DNA from: a virus
Lineage: Duplodnaviria; Heunggongvirae; Uroviricota; Caudoviricetes
Length of the DNA stretch: 43,791 nt
Strand: one strand, 5' to 3'
IMG/VR virus record: IMGVR_UViG_648861009_000009
Below the pieces are notes generated by a model that saw only the letters and a list, made by a program, of their open reading frames with translations, ran no database searches and had not been told where the DNA came from. The translations under genes and the position numbers were made by a program. Positions 2,494-28,309 of the stretch are shown piece after piece (positions within the stretch are counted from its first letter, which is position 1; the number at the start of each line of letters is the position of its first letter).

Positions 2494-2793
2494 CTACGAT
2501 GCAAGAATCCATACCAATAAGCATCCGATAATTGGGAAAGAAAAATCCAACAAACTTCCCACATCCCACACGCGTGGATCAAAACCTCCCCACCACGGCA
2601 TGTTGACACGTTTCCCTTTCCCAAACTTTTCTATCCAGCGATATTCTGCCTGGGTGTGTTCACGCGCAATGAAGAACGTACAACCGGCTATCGCACCGTA
2701 AGCCCAGTTTCCGGTAAAAATACCAACCAGTACCTGAGCCGCAAAAGCGCAAAGCGAGTGAAGAAATGGAGTGACATCAATGCTCTTAATCAT
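2494..2793 (-). CDS. Small 3-TM membrane protein at the lysogenic-conversion locus (moron, function unknown)
   Basis: 99-aa ORF; start overlaps tailspike stop (ATGA); hydrophobic segments; occupies the slot between tailspike and int where gtrABC/oac lie in relatives. Confidence 0.55.
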   Translation of the reverse strand: MIKSIDVTPFLHSLCAFAAQVLVGIFTGNWAYGAIAGCTFFIAREHTQAEYRWIEKFGKGKRVNMPWWGGFDPRVWDVGSLLDFSFPIIGCLLVWILAS

Positions 2794-4930
2794 GAAACTT
2801 CCCCATTGGTTGAAAATATGGCTCCTCCAACTCCAAGTGTATTTCGTGTTGTGCTCAACCTAAGAGGGCTGGAGTCAGAATTAGAATATCCTGTAGCAGA
2901 AATAAAAGATCCTCCACTAATAGTCAACTGCGGAACATCGGCTATATCTGAATAAGTTCTGTCAGCAACAGTATTATTTATAGCCACATGTGATCCAAAA
3001 AAACTTCTTATTGTTTGGTTTTTAACTTTACTTCCTTCAATGGTTATCCTACTACCACAGTCAGCAATAAATCCTGAATCTGCATCCAGCGTTGCATTCA
3101 TAAAAGAAGCTTCAGATCTCTCTACATCAATCCATCTAATATCTTTTGTGGGATTTGCACCAAATACATGACAAATATTAGAGTTAAACCTTACACCATC
3201 TTGGAGGTGCATTAATTTTTTTATATCTGTACCCCATAGCCTTGGAAAATTAACAGATGCTCCTGCATGGCAATCAAATCCCAACTCAGCCCCTGAGATA
3301 TCTACAGCCTTTCCTGAAATAACAGCACCAGTGTCTGCATTAACGGCTGTTCCACAATTGCGCATATCATTACCAGCAATATCAACACAACTCGCACCAT
3401 CAATACGCACACCAAGTGCACATCCATAAAAACCTTTTTCAATATTTGGTTCAAGGACTTTACCACTTGTTTCTGCATCACTTTCTTCAACGTCATGTCG
3501 TCTTGCATCAACATATGCTGTATGAATGCAGGTTAATCCACGATATGAGCAATGTATAGTTTTATGGTCGCGTATATTAACATTTNNNNNNNNNNNNNNN
3601 NNNNNNNNNNNNNNNNNNNNNNNNNNNNNNNNNNNNNNNNNNNNNNNNNNNNNNNNNNNNNNNNNNNNNAACCATCTCTTACATTCCATCCTATATAACA
3701 ATAGCTTGCACTTGACCCCTGAAAATCTGCTTTAACATTATAAATACAATTAACTGACGCAACCGTACTCTCTGTGCACCGTTCAAACTTGCTTACAGGC
3801 ATTGATGCCTTGACATTATTTACCAGTTGCAGGGAAGAGTATCTGCTATAAGAAAAATCACATACGTAATACCCTTCTGGCATATATGCAGCAACACTTT
3901 CCTCATCAGGAGCACATCCGGTATGATATGCACTAATTTTTGCACCAAAGCTACCATGAATTCCAACGTAGAACTTTCGAGCACCTGAATACGGATAGAA
4001 ATTAAGTTCAGCTTTTTGAGTTACAATAAATGCACAAACATCGCTATCATCTCTATTTTCTTCAATCTGAATAGCAAATACAGGACTTTTTGCTGCATCG
4101 CAAATGTAAAATAAATATTTGTATTCGTAATACGTCCTAACAGTTTTAGTAAACAAACTGGTATCAGAGAAAACCACTGAGTCTTCTGATATTATTTTAA
4201 TCCATGATAAGTCACATCCTGCTGAAATTTCTATTTGCTCATTGAGCACAAAACCGGAAAGAATTTTAATTATGCAAAAGTCAATGCCATTTTTCCATAG
4301 TGGACGCAGTGCAACAGCCGAGTTTAGAGCATCACTAATAGATTTAAAATTACCATATTCCCCAACTGTTATTGTGAATGCATACCTGGAATTAAATACT
4401 GCGGCACTCTCTCCAGAGTTAATAGCTGCAGATATCATGTCATAATTTGATATAAAATCATTTGGCGTGATTATTTCTGCGTTTTTATTGTGCTGTGTTC
4501 TAAGTTTTGAATTTACATGAACACTTTTAACTGCAATACGGGAGTCGTCAACAAGTATTTCATTACCCTCTGTTGCTAACTCTTGTCTTAACTGATCCGG
4601 GTCATACTTCAGCACATTCGGAAAATTGAACTGCTGTGCACCATACGCATCATAAACAGCCATAGAATGGCCTTGCTCAGTTACGAATTTGGCAATCTGT
4701 CCGTTATATACAGGGTAACCAGCAGCGTTAATGATGATTGGTTGCGATACAGGAACGTGAGAACCGTCTTCATTCTCCACATAAACCTGAATCTGGTTTT
4801 CAGGATTTACAGGGTCAGTGTCAATTTTTCCGATATAAATTTTGCCATTGGCAACCGCTTTAAAAGAACGTGCCATAGTGAAGAGTTGCGAAGGCATCGA
4901 TACGATCACATTGGCTGTAATGTCTGTCAT
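2790..4930 (-). CDS. Tailspike protein, P22 gp9-type N-terminal head-binding domain plus distinct receptor-binding domain; interrupted by assembly gap
   Basis: N-terminus [43 protein letters not shown] matches P22 tailspike; ORF spans N-run 3586-3669. Confidence 0.85.
3586..3669. other. Assembly gap (84 N) inside tailspike gene
   Basis: Run of N. Confidence 0.95.
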
Positions 4931-4996
4931 TTAATTTGCTCCAGATACAATGAATCGCCGCAGCGTGGCTACGGTTGGTATTTGTTTTGTTTTTGA

Positions 4997-5065: not shown

Positions 5066-5089
5066 TAAAAAAACCCAGCCGAAGCTGGG
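5066..5089 (-). terminator. Rho-independent terminator downstream of ant
   Basis: Minus-strand CCCAGC-TTCG-GCTGGG followed by T7 tract. Confidence 0.65.
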
Positions 5090-5108
5090 TCGTTGCGTTG
5101 GTTATCTG

Positions 5109-6032
5109 TCAGTAGTTATGTACTGAAGGAGGTAATTCTTTATTCTTAAGTCTCATCCATGCTGAAAGATTCGTTGGTCCGTCTGGCTCATTAATATCAA
5201 CATCTCGTGTATGGTTGATTAAAACATCTCTCGCCATATCGATAATACGGGAGAACTCATAACCGCAGTCATGACATCTGCCGGAATAGTTCGATTGAAT
5301 TTGTTTTAATGCCGGATACAGTTCGCGGAATAATGCCTGTGAGCGGTTGGCATAATCCCATAACCATACAAGGCTGTTTGCTTCTTTTGCAGAAAGCTCG
5401 TTTGCTTTCTTCTCTTGTTTGCCAATGAACTCACCTTCAAGTGGAACTCGAGCTGCAAGTGACAGTGCTTCTGTAAACTGCTCCTCACTGATTTCTTTGT
5501 ACGAACATCCAAAATGGGATTTCAGTGACGACCACATGGTGATCATCGCCTTAGCCTGTTTTTCTTTTGGCAGAGACTGACCGCGACTCATGACGAGTTG
5601 TTTAATGGCTTCCTGCTGTTCAGTGGTAATTTTACCCGGCAACGCCTTTTTAGCTTTGCGTGGGTTAACTACATGGCCTTTAGTCCAGTACTCGTATAGC
5701 ACATCGTCACACTCTTCCTGATACTGGATTACCTTGTCGCGGATTTCAGGACGGACTTTGTTTGGTTGAATACTTGAAAGCCAAGCCGCAAATTTACGAA
5801 AGGCAAGACATGTCATTAACTGTTTACCGCCAGCAGAAGGTATTTCGATTTCCGAAATACCTTTGGCAAACCTCTGTTTTAACTTAACAAATTGAGCTGC
5901 CCAAACCATCCCCATGCCTTCAACAACAGGCTTCATAGGAACATAAGGCTCATTGTTAATTCCAACCAAAAAAAGATTTGTTCCGTGGAATGGAACATTG
6001 ATTGTGCGATCTGCAATTGCTAAACTAGTCAT
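5109..6032 (-). CDS. ant: Antirepressor Ant (AntA N-domain type)
   Basis: 307-aa ORF at the immI position adjacent to tailspike, downstream of arc-like gene; RBS AGGAA. Confidence 0.75.
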   Translation of the reverse strand: MTSLAIADRTINVPFHGTNLFLVGINNEPYVPMKPVVEGMGMVWAAQFVKLKQRFAKGISEIEIPSAGGKQLMTCLAFRKFAAWLSSIQPNKVRPEIRDKVIQYQEECDDVLYEYWTKGHVVNPRKAKKALPGKITTEQQEAIKQLVMSRGQSLPKEKQAKAMITMWSSLKSHFGCSYKEISEEQFTEALSLAARVPLEGEFIGKQEKKANELSAKEANSLVWLWDYANRSQALFRELYPALKQIQSNYSGRCHDCGYEFSRIIDMARDVLINHTRDVDINEPDGPTNLSAWMRLKNKELPPSVHNY

Positions 6033-6511: not shown

Positions 6512-6676
6512 ATGTCTGATCGTAAGTACAAAAACCCTCAAGTGAATCTGAGGCTTCCTGTAGAGATAAAGGAACGTCTTATTGAACTGGCTGAGGCTAA
6601 TTCTCGTTCATTAAATGCTGAGATGGTCGCGGCACTTGAAGCGTGGACCGAAAAAATAAACACATTCAAGCACTAG
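6512..6676 (+). CDS. mnt: Mnt-like RHH repressor, apparently truncated (C-terminal domain in -1 frame to 6759)
   Basis: 54-aa ORF MSDRKYKNPQVNLRLPVEIKERLIELAEANSRSLNAEMVAALEAWTEKINTFKH divergent from arc; downstream frame encodes LATIASRLIDLEHDVETLKTMYGKDK. Confidence 0.55.
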   Translation: MSDRKYKNPQVNLRLPVEIKERLIELAEANSRSLNAEMVAALEAWTEKINTFKH

Positions 6677-27308: not shown

Positions 27309-28309
27309 GCCGCCCTCCTGACGCCCTGCCCGATCGCCATCAATGCCGCTTTGGATACGGTAGTAAACATCCGTCGAGGACTGATGAACGGTCGCCAAAT
27401 CAGCAGCATGGAGCCTTTGCTGTTTCCCTTCTTCTCTAGCCCCGTCGATGGTTCGATAAAATTAATCCGTCCATCAGTGATAATACGAACTTCGTCAACA
27501 CTCTCCAGAGCCTTGCTGAACCATCCGACTGACATATCCTCTGGCACAAGCATAACTACCGTCTGTCGCTGTTGTATGCACTGCTCAGCGGCTTTTTCCA
27601 CCCACGGCCTGATATTGCTGTACGGTGGGTTATTCCAGATTGCACCGTGGCTTACCCACTCAGAATTGAGCGCGTCGTCGGCCTCAGTTAGCCAGTGAGC
27701 GCACAGAGCATTTTTGNNNNNNNNNNNNNNNNNNNNNNNNNNNNNNNNNNNNNNNNNNNNNNNNNNNNNNNNNNNNNNNNNNNNNNNNNNNNNNNNNNNN
27801 NNNNNNNNNNNNNNNNNNNNNNNNNNNNNNNNNNNNNNNNNNNNNNNNNNNNNNNNNNNNNNNNNNNNNNNNNNNNNNNNNNNNNNNNNNNNNNNNNNNN
27901 NNNNNNNNNNNNNNNNNNNNNNNNNNNNNNNNNNNNNNNNNNNNNNNNNNNNNNNNNNNNNNNNNNNNNNNNNNNNNNNNNNNNAGCCTTGCTGAACCAT
28001 CCGACTGACATTATCCTCTGGCACAAGCATAACTACCGTCTGTCGCTGTTGTATGCACTGCTCAGCGGCTTTTTCCACCCACGGCCTGATATTGCTGTAC
28101 GGTGGGTTATTCCAGATTGCACCGTGGCTTACCCACTCAGAATTGAGCGCGTCGTCGGCCTCAGTTAGCCAGTGAGCGCACAGAGCATTTTTGTCGCTCG
28201 CTGCCGAATCCAGCCAGAATCCAAACTCAATATCCAGTGCATCAAAAAGCCAAAGCGGCGTTTGCCAGCAGTCCTTGTCGTGTGCTGGCGTATTTGATTT
28301 GATAGTCAT
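27305..28309 (-). CDS. Phage N6-adenine DNA methyltransferase (Dam-like), reading frame spans assembly gap and duplicated flank
   Basis: [19 protein letters not shown]...AIWNNPPYS (NPPY motif IV); gap 27717-27984; true gene probably ~180 codons. Confidence 0.7.
27717..27984. other. Assembly gap (268 N) flanked by ~200-bp duplicated sequence
   Basis: 27510-27716 repeats at 27985-28190 with a 1-nt indel. Confidence 0.9.

Follow-up and report, generated by a model that had tools for sequence, protein, structure and literature searches.

The stretch analysed here, henceforth called the window, comprises 43,791 nucleotides (nt) of a tailed virus (Caudoviricetes; IMG/VR record IMGVR_UViG_648861009_000009) and carries a prophage integrated at the tRNA-Arg(CCU) gene argW, adjoining yfdC. 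The subject of the analysis is the tailspike gene of this prophage, which is encoded on the minus strand. The window starts in yfdC and continues with argW (1009-1083) and intS (1209-2402), followed on the minus strand by an open reading frame (ORF) of 99 amino acids (aa), the tailspike gene, a terminator-like hairpin, the antirepressor gene ant (5109-6032), genes of the Arc family, and genes for ejection proteins. The tailspike gene thus has ant, arc/mnt, and the ejection genes upstream and int, argW, and yfdC downstream, as is the case for the gp9 gene in P22-like phages, and this is the usual arrangement at the right end of P22-like prophages in argW. The coordinates of all features are collected in Table 1.

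The start codon (ATG, 4930-4928) and the stop codon (TGA, 2792-2790) of the tailspike gene were found exactly where an earlier reading, made from the letters of the window by itself (henceforth the sequence-only reading), had placed the gene. As scaffolded, the gene has a length of 2141, which is not divisible by three; its halves consequently stand in different frames and were listed as two ORFs, the 5′ part consisting of 420 codons plus one base and the 3′ part of a single base followed by 264 codons and the stop. Joining the flanks of the run of N inside the gene through a TCA codon gives the true ORF of 2058 nt (685 aa plus stop), and the joined protein matched PHROG 5662 (tail fiber protein) over its full length (E = 0, 1269.6 bits, residues 1-685 on positions 37-729 of the 729 positions of the profile). 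Positions 4930 to 2790 very probably constitute one intact 685-aa tailspike gene of a P22-like (Lederbergvirus-type) prophage, with a beta-helix receptor module and with the N run as a mere placeholder.

Table 1 Features in and around the tailspike gene (positions refer to the window)
Feature	Position	Strand	Basis or remark
99-aa membrane-like ORF, phrog_1443	2494..2793	minus	Overlaps tailspike stop (ATGA); separate from tailspike
Tailspike gene as scaffolded	2790..4930	minus	ORFs and translations; 2141 positions including 84 N
Predicted beta-helix, second part (last base of codon 421 and aa 422-685)	2793..3585	minus	Translation
84-N run	3586..3669	none	Placeholder for one base in the middle of codon 421 (TCA, Ser)
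Predicted beta-helix, first part (aa 181-420 and first base of codon 421)	3670..4390	minus	AlphaFold, Foldseek, blastn boundaries
Linker or neck, partly helical (aa 114-180)	4391..4591	minus	Homology boundaries, model helices
P22-type head-binding (virion anchor) domain (aa 1-113)	4592..4930	minus	Pfam PF09008, PDB matches, DNA identity
Shine-Dalgarno-like GGAG	4939..4942	minus	Sequence read directly; 8 nt upstream of ATG at 4930
Terminator-like GC hairpin and T run	5072..5091	minus	Consensus scan; between ant (5109-6032) and tailspike

The 84-N run in codon 421

The run of N was counted at exactly the length and position reported in the sequence-only reading. The spacing of its flanks was determined in related sequences: in E. 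coli MS198-1 and phages HZ41 and JEP4, the 30-mers flanking the run are exactly one base (C) apart, and blastn alignments to phage 92CQ and to the epsilon15-type prophage of E. coli strain 118UI likewise jump by one base. The one-base spacing is thus common to five relatives, among which three types of N-terminal anchor occur. Read on the coding strand, the missing base is C (G on the plus strand), which gives Ser421. Additionally, a gap-free Logan contig (SRR10969700) was aligned with the window over 4261 nt to one side of the run and 921 nt to the other; it showed 0 mismatches and had a single C between the flanks. The coding sequence (CDS) of the tailspike is 2058 nt long in MS198-1 and HZ41, while the CDS annotated in JEP4 (2151 nt) starts upstream. 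An exact look-up in a public collection retrieved the joined 685-aa protein within a cluster of 190 members, the named members of which are 685-aa entries annotated as “phage head-binding domain-containing protein” or “bifunctional tail protein.”

A second N run of the window (268 N, 27717-27984) belongs to the nin region. Its left flank of 208 nt (27509-27716) recurs as its right flank of 209 nt (27985-28193), apart from one 1-nt indel, and the flanks overlap relative to strain E7476. This second run joins overlapping contig ends, i.e., it creates an artificial duplication, and N runs in this sequence are therefore placeholders. The 84-N run is an assembly or scaffolding artefact that replaces one base; at this place, two contig ends would abut with one base (C) missing between them, which would yield Ser421. 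As a side observation, the window and the Logan contig disagree only once in 5.2 kb, namely in a T stretch near position 6656, upstream of ant (T6 in the window, T7 in the contig); one of them probably contains a sequencing or assembly error in this homopolymer.

These results correct the sequence-only reading in two respects. The gap had been placed at the domain junction, but it lies about 900 nt farther 3′, at codon 421 and inside the beta-helix. Furthermore, the internal sequence had been regarded as undetermined and the continuity of the frame as unverified, but the single base between the flanks in five relatives and in the Logan contig gives a 685-aa ORF. The outcome is hence mostly a correction: the supposedly undetermined sequence is an assembly artefact within an intact and already deposited tailspike, which can be interpreted without closing the gap.

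Out of 5426 complete E. coli genomes, 16 (henceforth called carriers) contain the 3′ part of the gene (2793-3585) at 99-99.9% nt identity, and three of these carriers (MS198-1, EC332, and GPEC1186) have two separate copies of the receptor module, presumably one in a P22-type and one in an epsilon15-type prophage of the same specificity. Many members of the 190-member cluster are proteins cut off at contig ends, and the break marked by the second N run lies in the multi-copy nin region. Because of these three observations, the contig break in the tailspike gene probably arose from the ability of the receptor module to occur twice in one genome.

A true interruption of the gene, i.e., an insertion, the end of an insertion sequence (IS), or a frameshift hidden in the gap, which would make the tailspike a pseudogene, was considered as well. 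The halves are indeed out of frame as scaffolded, and contig breaks sometimes mark IS insertions. However, exactly one base separates the flanks in the five relatives and in the contig without mismatches, the flanks are short of one base and do not overlap, so that there is no target-site duplication, the exact intact protein is present in a public collection, and the second N run has been demonstrated to stem from overlapping contig ends. An interrupted gene is hence highly improbable.

Anchor, neck, and receptor module

Residues 1-113 matched the Pfam family Head_binding (PF09008) with an E-value of 1.8e-64 over the whole profile (1-113 of 113), as well as the solved N-terminal domains of Sf6 gp14 (E-value 1.6e-69) and P22 gp9 (E-value 3.7e-50). 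On the DNA level, nt 1 to about 342 of the gene are 85-94% identical to 34 phage records, including HK620, Sf6, CUS-3, and epsilon34, and to about 1100 E. coli genomes, after which homology ends. The boundaries of recombination lie in the neck: anchor homology ends at about nt 340-358 of the gene (about 4573-4590 in the window), homology to phage 92CQ begins at position 4502, and a weak similarity to Sf6 extends to residue 160. Helices were modelled in the neck region at residues 111-119, 146-152, and 162-175. The GC content is 43.1% in the anchor, 34.3% in the neck, and 34-37% in the neck and beta-helix together, compared to 46% for the window.

Beyond the anchor, profile scans of the tailspike returned no Pfam family other than PF09008 and no NCBIfam or PADLOC match. 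The receptor part had no relative in the PDB by phmmer, and a profile built from 24 homologues matched PDB entries only at positions 1 to about 180. With regard to the receptor-domain subtypes of P22, Sf6, and HK620, for which a similarity of about 30% aa identity or more serves as the threshold (PMC10408124), similarity was absent beyond residue 160 or so, and megablast matches stopped at about nt 342.

The receptor module is predicted to be a right-handed parallel beta-helix. An AlphaFold2 monomer model was computed from the alignment of the 24 homologues, the modelled sequence being that of a homologue with 99% identity in the receptor part; it reached a mean predicted local distance difference test (pLDDT) value of 85.7 (above 90 over residues from about 180 to 685) and consists of an all-beta stack of short strands. 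The best folds retrieved by Foldseek were trimeric beta-helix receptor-binding proteins or tailspikes (Andhra gp15, Sf6, HK620, CBA120), with PL6 and GH28 enzymes also among the matches at low template modelling (TM) scores. The best solved structural match, gp15 of Staphylococcus phage Andhra (PDB 8egr_A; TM 0.48-0.53, 15% identity), belongs to a phage of a Gram-positive host and has a different anchor, and common descent with the tailspike of the window is unsupported; it is a trimeric appendage of a podovirus resembling polysaccharide-degrading enzymes (PMC9710869). P22 gp9, Sf6 gp14, HK620 gp9, and the CUS-3 endosialidase share with the window PF09008 (at the above DNA identity), the place of the gene between immI and int, the predicted beta-helix layout, and a modular boundary at residues 113-120 or so. 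The beta-helices of Sf6 and HK620, however, have TM scores of at most 0.26 to that of the window, with undetectable sequence similarity in the receptor part.

On the architecture of the protein, the sequence-only reading was largely borne out. Its P22-type head-binding domain of about 115 residues corresponds to the PF09008 match, and the chimerism it described, a P22-type anchor with an unrelated receptor part, is present and is the normal design of Lederbergvirus tailspikes. The claim that the receptor part differs from those of P22, Sf6, and HK620 agrees with PDB and megablast matches confined to the N-terminal region, and structure prediction, which had been proposed as a check, gave a confident model of the C-terminal part as a right-handed beta-helix. 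It had also been stated that a receptor part identical to that of a characterised tailspike would refute it: near-identical tailspikes exist in JEP4, HZ41, and WP_ entries, but none of them is biochemically characterised.

The complete gene is 97-99% identical on the nt level in phages HZ41 (OM022251) and JEP4 (QOC67869.1, MT740315) as well as in seven complete genome records of E. coli, the same gene being deposited under WP_338799719.1 and WP_004015050.1 (both annotated “phage head-binding domain-containing protein”). These relatives agree with the tailspike of the window in genomic position and in the downstream small ORF, the HZ41 and chromosomal copies also in the length of 685 aa, and they differ from it by a few aa substitutions. 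The tailspike is hence already public, in isolated phages and under NCBI WP_ accessions. The literature on JEP4, HZ41, HEMP4, and 92CQ contained mentions of host range and phylogeny, and no receptor or enzymatic data were found in it for any homologue.

The module is rare, as the C-terminal 264 residues matched only 16 representative clusters out of 1.84 billion, and it occurs on several anchors. At 96-99% nt identity, it was detected from window position 4245 onward on an epsilon15-type anchor in nine genomes, from position 4502 onward in a “tail fiber protein” encoded by phage 92CQ (130 kb), and also in phage HEMP4. The epsilon15-type (Uetakevirus-like) protein of 118UI (WP_000218903.1, 729 aa) shares the module (residues from about 229 to 685, at the same identity) as well as the small ORF, but has a different N-terminal anchor (MTVSTEVDHNEYTGNG...) and belongs to a prophage adjoining yfgI instead of argW. 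Distant homologues with 36-69% aa identity, from sources including Aeromonas and Salmonella, bear PF18668, PF12571, PF03906, or PF09008 anchors. Judging from these sequence comparisons and from the low GC content (37%, compared to 46% for the window), the same receptor module on several anchor types reflects horizontal modular exchange, and the exchange of receptor domains among Lederbergviruses, Uetakeviruses, and lytic phages is well documented (PMC10408124; PMC11990801). Separately, a pattern scan of the GTDB species representatives gave a single match with 26% identity (JBOFTB010000051.1, 3385-4812) on a 6-kb contig of a metagenome-assembled genome labelled Mycoplasma sp.; this placement is unexpected for the receptor family and may stem from a phage or a mis-binned contig.

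In the paradigm of P22, Sf6, and HK620, the tailspike homotrimer docks on the tail hub by its head-binding domain, and the beta-helix acts on the surface polysaccharide. By analogy, the 113-residue head-binding domain would plug the tailspike trimer of the window into the tail hub, and the beta-helix would most likely bind and enzymatically cut a surface polysaccharide, letting the tail needle reach the outer membrane. In the alignment of the receptor family, 59 columns are invariant across E. coli, Salmonella, and Aeromonas homologues, many of them Arg, Lys, Asp, or Glu (acidic residues, e.g., D240, D250, E291, D358, D419, and D494), and one may speculate that these charged columns would suit an enzyme with a charged glycan as its substrate. 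It is unlikely that the beta-helix is instead a non-catalytic binder, or an esterase or deacetylase in place of a glycan-cleaving enzyme. Such a function would agree with the absence of a sequence match to any glycosidase or lyase family and with two homologues that bear an added C-terminal SGNH esterase domain (PF13472/PF00657). However, the added SGNH domain implies that the beta-helix itself is not an esterase, and an enzyme is favoured by the strong conservation of charged residues along the beta-helix and by a fold class common to depolymerising tailspikes.

Receptor module and host O antigen

The integrity of the tailspike gene, its domain architecture, its predicted fold class, and modular exchange are shown by the results above. 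The only point worth follow-up is that the receptor module does not correlate with the O serogroup of the host. The O-antigen loci of 11 carriers were typed from the annotation of the Prokaryotic Genome Annotation Pipeline (PGAP), leaving out FORC_082, 24A16CRGN010, CP033635, GPEC1186, and OZ392470 (the length and coordinates of the latter being those of CB7286). Seven loci were found among the typed carriers: O11 in MS198-1; O15 in 118UI, ECO_2_R, ECO_1_S, EECO1006, and MSB1_7C; O7 in PCP07083; the O17/O44/O73/O77/O106 group in CB7286; an unnamed rfbBDAC/glf/EpsG-wzy cluster (rhamnose/galactofuranose, Rha/Galf) in EC332; O25 with a frameshifted wzy in GN02461; and O83 in PD23. In MS198-1, galF is split by IS4. 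Specificity of the module for O11 was rejected, as MS198-1 is the only one with the module among 60 listed of 66 O11 genomes.

The sequence-only reading had taken the receptor part to imply an O-antigen specificity other than those of P22, Sf6, and HK620. A differing specificity is plausible, but recognition of simply one serogroup is unsupported, because lysogens with the module have at least seven O-antigen loci, and the receptor may be something other than a single O serogroup. Phage JEP4 lysed 32 of 67 antimicrobial-resistant isolates, including 28 of 38 in phylogroup A (PMC8425383), which is a broad host range for a P22-like phage. As a rule, receptor proteins of Lederberg- and Uetakevirus prophages track the serogroup of their host (PMC10408124).

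With these data, two explanations of the receptor were weighed, both of them possible though doubtful. The first is that the module recognises, as a depolymerase or as a binder, a surface polymer independent of the O serogroup, e.g., enterobacterial common antigen (ECA), colanic acid, a capsule, or a shared element of the lipopolysaccharide. It would account for the O loci of the 11 typed lysogens (O15 in five of them) and for the isolates lysed by JEP4, the tailspike gene of which is 97% identical, and it fits the invariant, often charged columns across the three host genera. Arguing against it, prophages can outlast the switching of O antigens, several of the lysogens may be non-independent, coming from a single lineage in which the site of the prophage is identical, and the host range of JEP4 may rest on something other than its tailspike. 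Aeromonas is, moreover, not known to have ECA or colanic acid.

The second explanation is a conventional endoglycosidase for one O serogroup, for which O15 is the best candidate, with the other lysogens resulting from O-antigen replacement or from inheritance of the prophage. In its favour, five of the 16 carriers are O15, compared to 100 of the 5426 genomes overall, the O15 and O25 loci both have fnlA/wbjC/wecB genes for N-acetyl-L-fucosamine (L-FucNAc), and tracking of the serogroup is the rule cited above. However, one and the same epsilon15-type prophage is present in all five O15 carriers, and 118UI and GN02461 both have it about 0.5 Mb from the O-antigen locus, so that the five are probably not independent. 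Moreover, none of the four typed P22-type carriers is O15 (O11, O7, O17 group, and the unnamed locus).

Several points weigh against the reading of the gene as an intact, receptor-degrading tailspike. A private insertion within the N run of this particular assembly is formally possible. The structural matches are of fold class only (TM of at most 0.57), the body of the beta-helix has no Pfam, NCBIfam, or PDB sequence match, and its catalytic activity is putative. The model is a monomer and silent on trimerisation, and the homotrimer would follow by analogy with known tailspikes. Lastly, the seven O loci among lysogens misfit a simple endoglycosidase specific for an O serogroup.

The rare receptor module, which is common to P22-like, epsilon15-like, and large lytic phages, lacks a Pfam model or solved relative, and both its anchors and the O types of its lysogens vary. 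A target glycan independent of the serogroup, if confirmed, would explain the at least seven O types of the lysogens together with the broad host range of JEP4 and would constitute an exception to the rule that the tailspike of a Lederberg- or Uetakevirus prophage predicts the O serogroup of the host. It would also be a caveat for predicting serotypes from prophage tailspikes, and the module would be useful for engineering the host range of phages or tailocins.

Flanking genes and mosaicism

Late transcription would, as in P22, continue beyond the terminator-like hairpin between ant and the tailspike gene. For the 99-aa ORF, no Pfam, NCBIfam, or PADLOC match was obtained, and it is possibly a moron or conversion gene. 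Its homologues immediately follow genes for tail fibres or tailspikes in phage 21, in lambda-like and P22-like phages, in Gally and 611R6, and in Aeromonas and Halomonas phages. A role as a receptor-specific conversion gene travelling with the module was rejected, as the genes preceding its homologues encode other receptor domains. In phage 92CQ, the small membrane ORF is a different one. Antisense ORFs in the region (e.g., 2656-2955 and 4667-4996 on the plus strand) were taken as by-products of the long minus-strand gene.

In comparison with MS198-1, the window is 99.9% identical 3′ of the gap (3585-1, including int and yfdC), 98.0% identical on the 5′ side (4975-3670), and 86% identical in ant. 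Judged by these identities, the prophage of the window is a mosaic relative to MS198-1, with the switch point at or near the gap.

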